From Botryllus schlosseri (Eukaryota): a stretch of DNA of 64,000 bases. This document shows, in pieces, positions 33,737 to 47,525 of this stretch. Every line of letters begins with the position of its first letter. Within the stretch, counting starts at the first letter, position 1. The stretch is from NCBI GenBank assembly GCA_051294905.1, contig CM119372.1, positions 14,448,001-14,512,000 of the forward strand, in the 5' to 3' direction. Below the pieces are notes generated by a model that worked only from the letters and a program-made list of their open reading frames with translations, was not told where the DNA came from and did no database searches. Both the position numbers and the translations under genes were made by a program.

Positions 33737-33808
33737 GGGGATTTAGCTCAGCGGTAGAGCAGCTGTCTTGCAAGCAGAAGGTCACGGGTTCAATTCCCGT
33801 ATTCTCCA
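33737..33808 (+). tRNA. tRNA-Ala (TGC), Polinton-encoded
   Basis: 72-nt cloverleaf: G3:U70 pair, D-arm GCTC/GAGC, loop CT-TGC-AA, T-arm ACGGG-TTCAATT-CCCGT, A73. T6 terminator at 33812-33817. Confidence 0.9.
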
Positions 33809-33877
33809 CTCTTTTTTCCGTTGAAGTGCTAATGACGCAAAGGTGGCGCAATCATTTCAATTTGATTGTCACTCAGA

Positions 33878-34348
33878 ATGTGTGCTTTGAAAAGACTGTG
33901 TTTCGAGCGAGAAAAGTTTCGGAATTGTTCTGATTCTACTATCAAAGCGGGACCGATTGACGAATCGAATCTATTTAGTTGGTGGGCAACAATTGAAGGA
34001 CCCCAGGGAACACCATACGAAAAAGGAGTGTTTAAAATATTAATAGAATATCCCACAGAGTATCCGTTTCGACCTCCGAAGATGAGATTTGAAACTCATA
34101 TATTTCACCCGAACATTAGTGTGAAAGGCACTATATGCGTGGATATTTTGCAGAAGCAATGGTCACCAGCGCTAACTACATCAACTGTGCTGCTATCAAT
34201 ATCTTCGTTACTTGGCGCACCAAATCCAAACGATCCTATGAATGCGGAAAGTGCACATCTCTATCTGGAAGATAGACAACTCTACTTTAAACGCGCTCAG
34301 CAATATACCGAACGCTATGCCAGAGTCGACTGCGATTTGTCAGCGTGA
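33878..34348 (+). CDS. Ubiquitin-conjugating enzyme E2 (UBE2D/Ubc4-5-like), 156 aa
   Basis: ALKRL, WATIEGPQGTPYEKGVF, YPFRPPK, HPN motif with catalytic Cys (HPNISVKGTICVDIL), QWSPAL, PNPNDPM. AATAAA at 34426. Confidence 0.95.
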   Translation: MCALKRLCFEREKFRNCSDSTIKAGPIDESNLFSWWATIEGPQGTPYEKGVFKILIEYPTEYPFRPPKMRFETHIFHPNISVKGTICVDILQKQWSPALTTSTVLLSISSLLGAPNPNDPMNAESAHLYLEDRQLYFKRAQQYTERYARVDCDLSA

Positions 34349-34524
34349 TTACAATGATTAAAACTATCATTTGCTTGTGACTTGTTTATGCCTTGTAAAT
34401 ATTGATTGTGGATCGCAATCTTTGTAATAAAAACTCCATAATGTGTTGGTTATATGAAAAATAGCGCGAGTTAGTGATTTATTGACGAAGTTGCACTGGT
34501 CTGATGCAGCTTGCATTGTGCGCT

Positions 34525-34596
34525 GATTCGTTGGTCTAGGGGTATGATGCTCGCTTTGGGAGCGAGAGGTCCCGGGTTCAAATCCCGGACGAATCT
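34525..34596 (+). tRNA. tRNA-Pro (TGG), Polinton-encoded
   Basis: Body nearly matches the conserved animal tRNA-Pro (TTGGTCTAGGGGTATGAT, CTCGC-TTTGGGA-GCGAG, CCGGG-TTCAAAT-CCCGG). Acceptor GATTCGT/ACGAATC is fully paired. T4 at 34600. Confidence 0.95.
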
Positions 34597-34647
34597 GCAT
34601 TTTGCTACTACCTAATGGATAAACACAACCGAACACGAGTCAGTGAT

Positions 34648-34965
34648 TTATTGAGTTATGAAACGACCATCACAAAACGCTTGGAATAGGATTATATTAC
34701 CAACAACAATCGCCTTGCCCTTGAAATCAATGACCAAGCACGATTTATAAAGCACACGATAATATTCGTCTTTACAGACAATGATATTACGCGATGGGTA
34801 TGTAACACAATCTTCAATTGGTTTCACTACAATTCTATTATCATAATGGAAAAGTATACACGTGTAGGGAATGGTAATTGATCTCACGTTGGGCAATACA
34901 ATCATTTCCTCATAATTACGACTCGACTCAAACTGAGTAGCAACAGAAATTCTTGCCATGGTCAT
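34648..34965 (-). CDS. Hypothetical Polinton protein, 105 aa
   Basis: Last ORF of the minus-strand gene chain. ATGA overlap with the upstream small ORF; the stop lies within an AATAAA. Confidence 0.6.
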   Translation of the reverse strand: MTMARISVATQFESSRNYEEMIVLPNVRSITIPYTCILFHYDNRIVVKPIEDCVTYPSRNIIVCKDEYYRVLYKSCLVIDFKGKAIVVGNIILFQAFCDGRFITQ

Positions 34966-35078
34966 GCTTCACTAGCTTGCTCACGTTCTTGACAGCAACA
35001 TGATACCCATTCCAGTATACAACAAATAGTAAGCAGTACGATGAACACGACAGCTAAGATATCATCGGCATCTTCCAT
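34962..35078 (-). CDS. Small predicted membrane protein, 38 aa (not in ORF track)
   Basis: MEDADDILAVVFIVLLTICCILEWVSCCCQEREQASEA. ATG abuts the upstream stop, and its TGA overlaps the next ATG. Confidence 0.55.
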   Translation of the reverse strand: MEDADDILAVVFIVLLTICCILEWVSCCCQEREQASEA

Positions 35079-35396
35079 TTATATACGCGATCTAGTCAGA
35101 GATTCCCAGATTTTTAGTCTACGAAAAACAACAAATTCTTCACTGATTTGTTGAGCAATTCTATGTTTCGATAACACGTCTATGTACATACAATGATTAG
35201 GAAAGCGTACAGGCAACCAATCAGTTCCAATGAATAATGTAATATCTCGGTCATGCGGATAAATACGTATATGAAAGCTATCAGATGAAAGTCTGTGAAT
35301 GCGTTCAGGATTCATTACAATGATTTTTTCTCTGATTTTCAGTCGAATCTTCTCATCTCCAAAGTACTGTATGACAGTGAAGCTATTTGCTCGCAT
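35079..35396 (-). CDS. Hypothetical Polinton protein, 105 aa
   Basis: ATG overlaps the protease 3' end; part of the tightly packed chain. No family recognised. Confidence 0.6.
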   Translation of the reverse strand: MRANSFTVIQYFGDEKIRLKIREKIIVMNPERIHRLSSDSFHIRIYPHDRDITLFIGTDWLPVRFPNHCMYIDVLSKHRIAQQISEEFVVFRRLKIWESLTRSRI

Positions 35397-45676: not shown

Positions 45677-46064
45677 ATTTCAAGCGCAGTTTACATTTAA
45701 TTACACCGTATAGAAACACAAACTTAATTTTTTCAAGACGCTGAATCTCAGCAATGCAAGCATTCGAGTCACTAGATAGTTTTTCAATGTCTTTCATGGT
45801 GTTTTTAATTATGTTTAGAAAATTTTTCGAGTAGTCTTGGTCAAATACTTCCATCGAAACAAGTCGATTCCACATAGCTTCCATCTTCAAATCGTCGTCA
45901 ACTAGACCTTCGATCAAAGACATACTGTCTTGACGCGAGCGCTTTCGGCTTTCATTTTGACTCTGATATATTTTGTTCATGTCTTTTCTCGGAGCCTGCA
46001 TCGTTTCACTTTGATGAGGTGCGTTCATATCTAACAAGTCACTTATGTCAATAAAGTTATTCAT
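45660..46064 (-). CDS. Hypothetical protein, about 134 aa, helical/coiled-coil-like
   Basis: ATG at 46064 follows a strong splice-acceptor-like sequence. Overlaps the PolB 5' end. Confidence 0.6.
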   Translation of the reverse strand: MNNFIDISDLLDMNAPHQSETMQAPRKDMNKIYQSQNESRKRSRQDSMSLIEGLVDDDLKMEAMWNRLVSMEVFDQDYSKNFLNIIKNTMKDIEKLSSDSNACIAEIQRLEKIKFVFLYGVIKCKLRLKYGFNF

Positions 46065-46146
46065 ACTGAGCTGCAAACAAAAAGATTGAATTAGCACTGT
46101 ATCAACATGCATCAAAATATTCGTACTAAATCAACATGAATCAAAT

Positions 46147-46635
46147 TCATTCACCTTCTTCGTAAGTACGTTTGATATCACGAAATTTAGCATAGAAACA
46201 CATTGCATGCATATCAGTTTCTACTTCATTGCCGTTGCGAGTTTTTACTGAAGTACGATTCAATAACGAATACAGAACAGTATCACGACCATGACTATTC
46301 AATGCTTCTACTGACGGATCGTAAAGTTTATTTCCAAATTTTACGACAACAGTTTTTCCAGCAAATGATAGTGGGTACTTATCAGTCATGATCTCAGAGC
46401 CATTTTTCACATCACAGAACATCCAGAAAGAGGCAGGCTTAATCAAGCCATAATCGCAGTTCACAGCAGTGCGTTGTACTGTCATAATAGTCTCTAGGAG
46501 AGCAGCATTATTCATGAAAACACTAGCGCAATTCGGAAACATGCAAATAGATTTGTCGGCATCGTAATATCTGAATCCATCCAACTTTTCCAAAGTAGTC
46601 AATACATAGTTTGCTATATCACTAGTTAAAAACAT
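46147..46635 (-). CDS. Hypothetical protein, 162 aa
   Basis: ATG lies about 25-30 nt downstream of TATATAA in the duplicated promoter block. No family recognised. Confidence 0.65.
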   Translation of the reverse strand: MFLTSDIANYVLTTLEKLDGFRYYDADKSICMFPNCASVFMNNAALLETIMTVQRTAVNCDYGLIKPASFWMFCDVKNGSEIMTDKYPLSFAGKTVVVKFGNKLYDPSVEALNSHGRDTVLYSLLNRTSVKTRNGNEVETDMHAMCFYAKFRDIKRTYEEGE

Positions 46636-46638
46636 ATG

Positions 46639-46963
46639 TCATGTAATAAATATTACACGTTATATATTGCCTTGCACTTGCTTCAACTGCAATAACAAAG
46701 GCAATCAACGCAATATTGACGTAATCATATCTCAGCGTTACTAAAGTAATCAACTACGCATATGACGTAATCATGAACATGCTTCAACTGCACAATCGTA
46801 ATGACGTAAATATTTCTCGGTGTTATTGGACTGGAACTAGACGCAATCATGACGTAATCATATCTCAGCATTACTGGAACTAAGCAAAGACGCTCTCGTA
46901 ATAACTAAAGTAATCAACTACGGATATGACGTAATCAATACTGTACATGCTGCAATACGCAAT
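46639..46963 (-). promoter_or_regulatory. Internal, rearranged copy of the right subterminal promoter/TIR-inner region
   Basis: Direct repeat of 49326..49513, with the first ~100 bp nearly identical. Five TGACGTAA motifs and a TATA box on the minus strand. Confidence 0.8.
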
Positions 46964-47138
46964 CCTCGAATTTTAACAAAAGGTTGAGTGTTTTGCTAAT
47001 CAAAATCTTCGCTCGAGTTGATTTAGCTTTACTGCAATCATCGCCGGTGATGTCAATCACGTCAACTCGAGTCGTACTACTTTCTTTATCTACTGCGACT
47101 TGTTCCATCTCGTCATTTACGGCTTGTTCAGTATTCAT
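46935..47138 (-). CDS. Short acidic ORF, 67 aa, with SIM-like motif; possibly truncated
   Basis: Contains VDVIDITGDD. The 3' end runs into the duplicated block. Confidence 0.4.
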   Translation of the reverse strand: MNTEQAVNDEMEQVAVDKESSTTRVDVIDITGDDCSKAKSTRAKILISKTLNLLLKFEDCVLQHVQY

Positions 47139-47442
47139 TCTCAATACTCAATAACTAAAGTCTAAACGGCGTATCTACTGAGCGTATCTAAACCATTGAA
47201 AATCTATTCCCTAATGACAACTGCGCGATACTCGACAATAACAAAACGCAGCTGTTCGATCTTAGTGGAACTTAGCATTGCTAGCTCCAAATATCGTGTT
47301 GAAAAATCAATTCCCCAATGAGTTAGACAACAGTGCGTTACTCGTAGCGATTCAATCGTAATACTCTATAATATCAAAAACGCAAATGACTGCTATCTCT
47401 AAATAGTAGTTGCATAGCTGAGGCTAAACACCGTAAATGAAT

Positions 47443-47525
47443 ACTGAGTTGGCCGAGTGGTTAAGGCGCTGGGTTTAATTTCCAATGAGCAAGTGTTCAC
47501 GTGGGTTCGAATCTCACACCTAGTA
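47443..47525 (+). tRNA. tRNA-Leu (TAA), Polinton-encoded, partly divergent
   Basis: 83 nt: TGGCCGAGTGGTTAAGGCG A-box, anticodon TAA, long variable arm TGAGC-AAGT-GTTCA, T-arm GTGGG-TTCGAAT-CTCAC, A73. Has an A5-C68 mismatch and U37. Confidence 0.8.

Follow-up and report, generated by a model that had tools for sequence, protein, structure and literature searches.

Three tRNA genes carried by a Polinton of Botryllus schlosseri and shared with related elements of the same genome

The window, i.e., the whole analysed stretch of 64,000 nt of Botryllus schlosseri DNA, contains a virus-like transposon of 17.8 kb of the Polinton/adintovirus type, whose limits are marked by inverted repeats (32036 and 49851; Table 1). 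Of the Polinton hallmarks, the integrase (PF00665 and PF00385), the capsid gene and the packaging ATPase (PF04665) were found. The repeat pairs 32036-32170/49717-49851 and 32522-32770/49488-49736 are 96% and 91% identical, respectively. The left repeat is interrupted by a palindromic insert of ~350 bp with arms at 32164-32348 and 32358-32542; relatives of this insert occur elsewhere in the window. A 6-bp target-site duplication was searched for at 32036/49851 and none was seen, and the outer inverted repeat gave no match at the loci of the sister copies. For the capsid protein, 99 scored matches were obtained across the genome. The putative maturation protease had no Pfam match. The candidate DNA polymerase matched no Pfam family and no solved (PDB) structure by sequence; as a lead, the Atlas clusters nearest to it have PF03175 (score 0.97, 19 hits), and a DTDS motif is visible.

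Table 1. Features of the element, with positions in the window
Feature	Position	Strand	Basis and remarks
Left terminal inverted repeat	32036..32770	.	pieces 32036-32170 and 32522-32770
Bcl-2 family gene, 172 aa	32858..33376	+	PF00452, E 1.1e-20
ORF125	33336..33713	+	retained in a diverged sister (90% aa); also in family 2 (31% aa)
tRNA-Ala(UGC)	33737..33808 (ARAGORN 33737-33809)	+	RF00005, 67.4 bits; T6 at +4
E2 ubiquitin-conjugating enzyme gene, 156 aa	33878..34348	+	PF00179, E 1.9e-48
tRNA-Pro(UGG)	34525..34596	+	RF00005, 61.1 bits; T4 at +4
Two 105-aa ORFs	34648..35396	-	kept in families 1, 2 and 3
Putative maturation protease, 150 aa	35383..35835	-	adenain-like H...Q...C pattern by eye; kept in relatives
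Major capsid protein, 425 aa	35832..37109	-	30%-identical relative named 'Major capsid protein' by UniRef
Three virion-block ORFs (122, 249 and 273 aa)	37160..39073	-	no assigned family
Retrovirus-like integrase with C-terminal chromodomain	39230..40237	-	PF00665, E 1.9e-13; PF00385, E 1.2e-9
A32/FtsK-type packaging ATPase	41122..41853	-	PF04665, E 8.5e-10
Candidate protein-primed family-B DNA polymerase, 1309 aa	41747..45676	-	Atlas-cluster lead; DTDS motif
tRNA-Leu(UAA)	47443..47525 (ARAGORN 47443-47526)	+	RF00005, 40.8 bits; long variable arm, A73
ORF183	47894..48445	+	open reading frame
Death-domain gene, 95 aa	49011..49298	-	PF00531, E 3e-11
Right terminal inverted repeat, unbroken	49488..49851	.	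inverted-repeat match

tRNA genes were called with ARAGORN and with the Rfam model RF00005 (gathering score 29 bits). ARAGORN returned exactly three tRNA genes for the whole window, Ala(tgc), Pro(tgg) and Leu(taa), all of which score above the Rfam threshold. As an earlier note made from the sequence had proposed, all three lie on the plus strand between the inverted repeats. Three randomly placed genes would all fall into the 17.8-kb element with a chance of ~2%. The Ala and Pro genes enclose the E2 gene, and the Pro gene is located where a plus-strand block (Bcl-2, ORF125, E2) meets a minus-strand block extending from 34648 to 46635; both placements had been described in the same note. By eye, the candidate A and B boxes each agree with the textbook consensus at 9-11 of its 11 positions.

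Two of the three genes were said to have an immediate T-run, which holds for Ala (T6) and Pro (T4), each run beginning 4 nt past the gene. Near the Leu gene of the window only TTT is present and the first T4 follows 152 nt downstream; a nearby terminator is likewise absent in all eight family-1 copies with this gene, the first T4 being found at +191 to +277 in the sisters. The Ala gene has G3:U70 and a U6-U67 mismatch, and every family-1 copy has position 6:67 unpaired (U-U or U-C). The Pro gene has an element-specific acceptor stem (A2:U71, U3:A70), U73, G26 and A38. In the Leu gene of the window, the mismatches A5-C68 and C27-A43 and a U37 were found; with two pairs broken, it has lost 17 bits against the Leu genes of the sisters (57.9 bits) and is probably impaired. 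As candidate identity elements for charging, Ala has G3:U70, Pro has G35-G36, and Leu has A73 together with the long arm.

The capsid family of the element (family 1) is represented by 12 loci in the genome. The Ala gene was found at all 12, each time 2 kb from the capsid gene, the Pro gene at 11 and the Leu gene at eight, always in the same places; in one copy, E2 and Pro have been removed by a deletion. Over 2.5 kb around Ala and Pro, ten sisters match at 95-100%. Among the tests named in the earlier note were whether the genes are missing from sister elements and whether they are heads of host SINEs dispersed genome-wide, and both of these turned out in favor of element genes. Each of the 26 genome matches of the Ala gene is found at a distance of 2-3 kb from a Polinton capsid gene, and near-identical copies of Pro and Leu are syntenic with Polinton capsid genes; a SINE head or another dispersed tRNA-derived repeat is thereby ruled out.

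The tRNA genes are not confined to one capsid family. In family 2 (capsid 83-87% identical), Ala(TGC) follows E2 in 13 of 14 loci, and one copy has an element-type Pro gene beside the Death gene, the identical stretch starting precisely at base 1 and ending with the T4 run. One family-3 copy carries Ala and Pro behind an IAP gene with family-3 sequence on both flanks; this pair is unique in the genome, most family-3 copies being without it. At one family-3 and one family-4 locus, no tRNA gene was found in the 4.5 kb on one side of the capsid gene. In all Polinton-related loci of this genome which were examined, the only isoacceptors were Ala-UGC, Pro-UGG and Leu-UAA. A distant Polinton family from metagenomes was represented by four contigs, three of which span the point between protease and ATPase, and all three have a tRNA-Met gene with a T6 run there.

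In 11 aligned copies, one of 72 columns varies in Ala and one of 72 in Pro (2/144 together), compared to 58/319 columns in the four adjacent spacers and 62/432 in all five (Fisher's Exact Test, p = 2e-8 and 2e-6, respectively). The coding columns of Bcl-2 and E2 vary at 60/990 positions (p = 0.017 against the tRNA columns). For Leu, 4/83 columns vary compared to 133/768 in its flanks (p = 0.0016). All these columns were counted in related copies and do not represent independent events. The changes which did occur preserve the fold: the sole variable Pro column turns C-G into U-G, and in a 90%-diverged copy of Ala, G27-A43 becomes G-U and U31-G39 becomes U-A.

The element Pro gene differs at 7 of 72 bases from eight identical host Pro(TGG) genes. 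Two acceptor-stem pairs are compensated from host to element (2:71 from G-C to A-U and 3:70 from C-G to U-A), position 73 is U in the element and C in the host, and all element genes have G26 and A38 where the host has T26 and T38. The element Pro departs from every host Pro isoacceptor seen in acceptor stem, discriminator and positions 26 and 38. Element scores equal or exceed those of host genes (tRNA-Pro, 61.1 compared to 56.7 bits). The tRNA genes belong to the element, are conserved relative to their flanks, have changed in ways that keep the fold, and recur as the same three isoacceptors in further Polinton families of the genome. Being common to the sisters and unusually conserved, they give the impression of functional cargo of a virus, not of host debris.

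Codon usage of the element was compared to a host sample of 28 kinase domains only. GC3 is 0.38 in the element and 0.52 in this sample. GCA (0.30 compared to 0.19, p = 0.0018) and TTA (0.21 compared to 0.13, p = 0.0009) are enriched, whereas CCA is not significantly so (0.27 compared to 0.23, p = 0.32). Among codons enriched over the host sample, GCA ranks 6th, TTA 18th and CCA 23rd, and none of the three is frequent in the capsid gene. The proposed role in codon supply has modest support from the lower GC3 and from GCA and TTA; other codons are enriched more strongly. A shortage of host tRNAs is not evident, since at least eight identical Pro(TGG) genes exist and the host tRNA arrays are very large (36,083 first-look candidates). 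Overall, the richness of element genes in A/T at third positions is only a modest fit with codon supply.

We lean towards the explanation that the genes are selected cargo of the element, which would be transcribed by RNA polymerase III (Pol III) and charged, and would add decoders for GCA, CCA and TTA that help translation of the element. The genes were probably derived from a host long ago and would then have been held by selection as foldable genes in the Polinton lineage. Host Pol III would transcribe them from the internal A and B boxes, the Ala and Pro transcripts ending at the T-runs directly behind the genes. Host enzymes would process and charge the products, for which the candidate identity bases are present, and the added decoders may aid translation of genes that are A/T-richer at third positions than those of the host. 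Transcription, charging and the benefit for translation are inferred.

Alternatively, the element tRNAs might replace or decoy host tRNAs which are cleaved or depleted during infection, the altered stems resisting a host nuclease. This is rather unlikely in our view. It would agree with a Pro gene that keeps its fold and is nevertheless unlike every host Pro isoacceptor seen, with the recurrence of the same three isoacceptors across families, and with the position of the genes amid death and immunity cargo (Bcl-2, E2 and Death domain; IAP and caspase-like genes in family 3). We know of no nuclease that targets the trio Ala-UGC, Pro-UGG and Leu-UAA. In vertebrates, Schlafen nucleases reportedly cut type II tRNAs, including tRNA-Leu, in a codon-usage-dependent restriction of viruses (PMC11615386, PMC10359600). 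However, neither Ala nor Pro is a type II tRNA, and an exon-by-exon search of the host genome for the SLFN domain AlbA_2 (PF04326) gave nothing at E 0.001, which does not prove absence. A broader reading, which we hold to be quite unlikely, is that a clade of animal virus-like transposons has wobble-U tRNAs of its own (Ala-UGC, Pro-UGG, Leu-UAA), recognizable by their sequence, which are swapped between families as exact Pol III units reaching from base 1 to the terminator and are placed among anti-death genes. They would form a dedicated module that sustains viral translation when the host attacks or withholds tRNAs.

A role at the DNA level, with the genes as boundaries bound by Pol III/TFIIIC which divide transcription blocks or shield cargo from silencing, appears improbable. 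The family-1 Pro gene and, in family 2, the Ala gene are located where two blocks converge, Leu is found where blocks diverge (o162 on the minus and o183 on the plus strand), and the integrase has a chromodomain. However, block junctions are also simply harmless places for inserts. Little beyond a B box would be required of a boundary, whereas compensated acceptor stems, kept anticodon stems, candidate identity bases and exact terminators point to selection on the RNA.

That the genes are neutral passengers, acquired by chance and functionless, is very improbable, even though the Leu copy of the window is damaged, Leu is without a nearby terminator, E2 and Pro were lost from one copy, the Ala-Pro pair is unique and missing from most family-3 copies, no tRNA gene was found within 4.5 kb on one side of the capsid gene at one family-4 locus, and tRNA genes are abundant in the host genome for pick-up. 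Against neutrality, tRNA columns are about ten times less variable than spacers and also less variable than coding sequence, the existing variation is compatible with the fold, families with capsids only 70-87% identical have retained the genes, and shared derived bases mark the element Pro lineage.

That the genes yield decoys or precursor RNAs made by Pol III, comparable to adenovirus VA RNA or the tRNA-miRNA units of murine gammaherpesvirus 68, with the tRNA part serving mainly as promoter and processing handle, is barely plausible. The element presumably belongs to an adenovirus-like group, a Leu transcript would run on for 150-280 nt, and in sisters the stretch downstream of Leu has repeated palindromic motifs and folds slightly better than its shuffles (z -2.1; 6 of 200 shuffles fold as well). 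In the window, however, shuffled versions of the corresponding stretch fold better than the stretch itself (z +1.2 and +1.65), and it is only ~84% like the sisters; Ala and Pro stop at once in T-runs, and each of the three genes encodes a full cloverleaf with candidate identity bases. This role, also considered in the earlier note, is unsupported; no stable or conserved structure was found downstream of the tRNA genes.

Genuine tRNA genes are rarely known from animal viruses. The tRNA-like units of murine gammaherpesvirus 68 and the VA RNAs of adenoviruses are Pol III genes with internal promoters in animal DNA viruses. They are not normal decoders, whereas the genes of the element encode full cloverleaves with candidate identity bases and are followed by no conserved hairpin. 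The tRNAs of phages and giant viruses reportedly tend to correspond to codons which the virus uses more often than its host does (Bailly-Bechet et al. 2007, as cited in PMC12220804), and GCA and TTA fit this pattern here. Phages and giant viruses infect prokaryotes or protists and use other transcription machinery; the genes described here are of the eukaryotic Pol III type with T-run terminators, and the element, unlike those viruses, also resides in the germ line as a transposon.

Closest in kind are the polinton-like viruses and virophages of protists, small capsid-encoding integrating dsDNA elements with tRNA genes aboard, for which 558 tRNAs in ~8300 genomes are reported (PMC12220804); its authors likewise invoke codon compensation or the buffering of tRNA depletion. 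These elements are often tied to giant viruses, and each examined row of Table S12 in that source has a single tRNA. In contrast, the present element, with its candidate PolB, rve-chromo integrase and Bcl-2 cargo, is a Polinton of the animal type and has three tRNA genes, its isoacceptors recur across families, and the host counterparts can be compared directly. The earlier statement that tRNA genes are not known as a Polinton feature must be qualified in view of the protist elements (PMC12220804); for animal Polintons, our literature search found none published. With adintoviruses and animal Polintons (Mavericks; PMC8502044, PMC11071296), the element shares a large candidate PolB, capsid, putative adenain-like protease, packaging ATPase, rve integrase with chromodomain and Bcl-2/IAP-type cargo. 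Neither paper discusses tRNA genes of PolB-type adintoviruses in its text; the only mention of 'tRNA' in PMC8502044 is a figure legend which marks tRNA gene predictions for further mid-size dsDNA viruses associated with animals, which have other replicases. The term is not mentioned in PMC11071296, PMC11131425 and PMC10748475.

The genome offers a natural comparison series, with capsid families that have tRNA genes, families mostly without them, a copy with one loss and copies with a damaged tRNA gene, and the element Pro, with its 7 of 72 bases unlike the host, is a ready marker of element activity in tRNA-sequencing data. If the genes are expressed, animal Polintons and adintoviruses would adjust the decoding capacity of their host, as phages and giant viruses do. 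Should the reading as a dedicated module be true, the module would be without precedent in animal DNA viruses and possibly a picture of how Pol III RNA genes of the adenovirus type began.

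In the 64-kb window, ARAGORN predicted three tRNA genes and no more, all on the plus strand and all inside an element of the Polinton/adintovirus type (table). The observation of the earlier note holds: these genes (hereafter Ala, Pro and Leu) are genuine and part of the element. They are also conserved and distinct from host genes. The described arrangement was recovered as well: the E2 gene is flanked by Ala and Pro, and Pro is located where the plus and minus strand blocks converge. T-run terminators directly behind two genes were found as reported (T6 for Ala and T4 for Pro, both beginning 4 nt past the gene end); for Leu, the nearest T4 in the window is 152 nt downstream.

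tRNA genes and inverted repeats of the element (window positions)
Feature	Position	Strand	Support
tRNA-Ala(tgc)	33737-33809	+	ARAGORN; Rfam tRNA model 67.4 bits (threshold 29)
tRNA-Pro(tgg)	34525-34596	+	ARAGORN; Rfam tRNA model 61.1 bits (threshold 29)
tRNA-Leu(taa)	47443-47526	+	ARAGORN; Rfam tRNA model 40.8 bits (threshold 29)
Inverted repeat pair	32036-32170/49717-49851		96% identity; bounds the 17.8-kb element
Inverted repeat pair	32522-32770/49488-49736		91% identity; bounds the 17.8-kb element

Besides the tRNAs, the element encodes a Bcl-2 protein, an E2 ubiquitin-conjugating enzyme, an rve integrase with chromodomain, an A32-type packaging ATPase and a Death-domain protein. The capsid protein has 425 aa; a 30%-identical relative is named major capsid protein by one source, and a scan of IMG/VR with the capsid protein yielded no relatives. 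The putative polymerase (PolB, 1309 aa) had no match in Pfam or in a PDB sequence search, and its nearest Atlas clusters carry PF03175 at 0.97. According to PMC8502044 and PMC11071296, this gene set is the one defining animal Polintons/adintoviruses. The left inverted repeat is split by a palindromic insert of ~350 bp, and no target-site duplication was seen at the element ends. Other copies of the same family in this genome (sisters) match the window only from 32536-32542 inward; thus, the outer repeat of the window copy is unlike theirs. The insert in the left inverted repeat (32164-32542) is a MITE-like palindrome whose arms of 185 nt are 91% complementary and separated by 9 nt, with relatives in the window at 26795-27037, 6282-6566 and 26912-27196.

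Membership was assessed in the 495-Mb assembly containing the window. A search with the capsid protein gave 99 scored matches among 273 candidates, and the family counts are lower bounds: family 1 with at least 12 loci (capsid identity 97-100%), family 2 with at least 14 (83-87%), family 3 with at least about 45 (65-71%) and family 4 with at least 26 (33-34%). Ala occurs at 26 places in the genome. Of these, 12 (94-100% identity) have a capsid gene of family 1 at a distance of 2 kb, 13 (86%) have one of family 2 at 2-3 kb, and a single one (85%) has one of family 3 at 3 kb. Since none of the 26 places is free-standing, Ala is not the head of a SINE. The 86% matches and locus L046 were considered as host genes and rejected, both being Polinton-borne. 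The genes are also present in the sister copies: Ala in 12/12 family-1 loci, Pro in 11/12 (99-100% identity, ~790 bp downstream of Ala, with one further place elsewhere) and Leu in 8/12, namely the window copy and seven mutually identical copies at 95%. Ten sisters align with the window at 95-100% across 2.5 kb spanning Ala and Pro; in the eleventh (~90% identical), a deletion equivalent to 33898-34640 removed most of E2 together with Pro.

For conservation around Ala and Pro, the window and the ten sisters were aligned, leaving out the deleted copy (L019) and an unrelated locus (L020). The column counts are not independent events because the copies share ancestry; read accordingly, one of 72 columns is variable in Ala and one of 72 in Pro, compared to 58/319 in the four tRNA-adjacent spacers (Fisher p 2e-8), 62/432 in all five spacers (p 2e-6) and 60/990 in the Bcl-2 and E2 coding regions (p 0.017). 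In the Pro D-loop of one copy, a single nucleotide is inserted. In the Leu region, the window copy is ~84% like its sisters and the Leu tRNA itself 95%. Variable columns number 4/83 in Leu and 133/768 in its flanks when the window is included (p 0.0016), and 0/83 versus 32/768 among the seven sisters alone (p 0.064).

Many of the changes preserve the fold. Eight dispersed Pro(TGG) genes of the host are mutually identical and have unrelated flanks. Relative to these, the element Pro has changes at seven positions: pair 2:71 is changed from G-C to A-U and pair 3:70 from C-G to U-A, both compensated, and single changes are T26 to G, T38 to A and discriminator C73 to U. Its bit score is 61.1 versus 56.7 for the host gene, and the sole variable Pro column among sisters turns C-G into U-G. 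Ala of the family-1 copy with ~90% identity carries four changes; pairing is better for two of them (G27-A43 to G-U; U31-G39 to U-A). Using sets with sequences from different families and from the host, RNAalifold found double changes keeping the pair in Ala (2; 7 sequences), Pro (3; 6 sequences) and Leu (3; 8 sequences). Counting against fold preservation, position 6:67 of Ala (U-U or U-C) is unpaired in every family-1 copy. The window Leu differs from the seven identical sisters by G5 to A (A-C mismatch), U27 to C (C-A mismatch), G37 to U and C62 to U (G-U), and scores 40.8 bits versus 57.9; judged by its sequence, this copy is damaged.

The same three isoacceptors are found again in Polintons of other families in the genome, in other arrangements. 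At a family-2 locus (L088), the order is ORF125, E2, tRNA-Ala(TGC) and then the convergent virion block, hence Ala and not Pro occupies the convergence point. One family-2 copy has an element-type Pro directly past the Death gene. Its identity to the Pro unit of the window begins precisely at tRNA base 1 and stops at the terminator's last T, with a single mismatch in between, and its flanks are barely or not alignable. In one family-3 copy, a caspase-like gene and a three-BIR IAP are followed by tRNA-Ala(TGC) and tRNA-Pro(TGG) back to back. The pair (297 bp) is unique in the genome; both flanks match another family-3 copy at 97-99% identity, and in that copy 958 bp of different sequence stand at this place. 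As both flanks are family-3-like, the pair is inside the element. G26 and A38 are common to all element-borne Pro genes, whereas the host TGG, AGG and CGG isoacceptors have T26 and T38; because these bases are shared, the sequences point to one old Pro capture, possibly from another host, that then spread among Polintons. Sampling of families 3 and 4 covered one side of one locus each, plus one family-3 locus picked for its tRNA match; no tRNA was found in the 4.5 kb adjoining the capsid gene at one family-3 and one family-4 locus. Within the Polinton-related loci examined in this genome, no anticodons other than Ala(TGC), Pro(TGG) and Leu(TAA) were found. The cell-death toolkit of these elements is varied, with caspase-like and IAP genes in family 3 (L098 827-2980, G000:C11; PF00656, E 9.5e-11 and PF00653, E 1.5e-39) and Bcl-2, E2 and Death-domain genes in family 1.

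tRNA-Leu(TAA) with 220-270 nt of upstream flank is also present in ORF-poor relics, often in both long inverted repeats and sometimes truncated or degenerate. A 9.5-kb multi-copy element (L087 at G000:C13:14006300-14016200; similar pairs number at least 8) has no ORF of ≥120 aa and bears tRNA-Leu(TAA) and a Bcl-2-like fragment at both inverted ends; it may be a non-autonomous Polinton derivative. A relic of ~16 kb (L091/L092, G000:C2:1138000-1155500), likewise lacking ORFs ≥120 aa, has inverted ends of at least 3.5 kb, in which fragments of Death-domain, ORF162 and Bcl-2 sequence are found along with a tRNA-Leu truncated after base 63. Similar pairs are located on C10 and C6.

Beyond this genome, scanning metagenomes with an alignment of three capsid proteins retrieved four contigs, which are 91-97% alike and therefore count as one family (identity to the window: capsid 26%, integrase 37-39%, ATPase 32%). 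In all three contigs reaching past the protease (L099, L101, L102), a tRNA-Met(CAT) with a T-run behind it (T5-T6) lies between protease and ATPase; the remaining contig stops within the capsid gene. Carriage of tRNAs thus extends beyond this genome, and wobble-U anticodons are not the general pattern. In sequencing runs labelled as a second organism (B), about half of the sampled words of 33300-37200 are present; a close relative of the element may therefore exist in a related species.

Among the roles proposed in the earlier note, codon supply fits loosely, in direction. Codon usage was compared between 18 element ORFs (4494 codons) and 28 host kinase domains (7372 codons), a small host sample. 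GC3 is lower in the element (0.38 versus 0.52), and the shares of GCA (0.30 versus 0.19, Fisher p 0.0018) and TTA (0.21 versus 0.13, p 0.0009) within their amino acids are raised. CCA, however, is not distinguished (0.27 versus 0.23, p 0.32), the enrichment of GCA, TTA and CCA ranks only 6th, 18th and 23rd, with CGA, AAT, TAT, ATT and AGT ahead, and the capsid gene has no special richness in the three codons. Many host protein-kinase domains (loci L057-L086) are read through within one open frame, the longest of 1644 aa; few or no introns interrupt the domain, at least in this set. Pro(TGG) genes are numerous in the host, and its tRNA arrays are huge; a first look with RF00005 gave 36,083 candidates, of which 63 were scored, and L038 is tentatively the host tRNA-Leu(UAA). 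The arrays are very dense (G000:C1:30.75-30.80 Mb, C2:39.12 Mb, C3:34.49-34.51 Mb), with, for example, a Pro gene per ~170 bp.

Counter-defence, in which the element tRNAs replace those cut by host nucleases, would account for the altered stems and for the anti-death genes nearby, but an exon-by-exon PF04326 search at E 0.001 found no Schlafen-type domain in the host genome. A purely DNA-level boundary role of the tRNA genes leaves the compensated stems unexplained. A decoy like the adenovirus VA RNAs or the tRNA-like TMER units of murine gammaherpesvirus 68 found no backing in a conserved structure behind Leu, as 47443-47660 and 47526-47685 fold no better than shuffled sequences, only two 11-bp mini-repeats were detected there by TRF, and a single sister's stretch folds mildly better. 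Between tRNA-Leu and ORF183 (window 47577-47760), sisters L021-L027 have two ~77-nt repeats rich in the palindrome TTGCGCAA, which may be promoter or binding sites for ORF183.

tRNAs occur in protist polinton-like viruses and virophages according to PMC12220804, which proposes codon compensation for them. In PMC8502044, outside its supplementary figures, tRNA comes up a single time, in a figure legend concerning viruses with other replicases, and the word is absent from PMC11071296, PMC11131425 and PMC10748475. Among the papers listed by literature searches, titles and abstract openings named no tRNA genes of animal Polintons. Virus-borne tRNAs are known; here, genes for them are found in an animal Polinton lineage.
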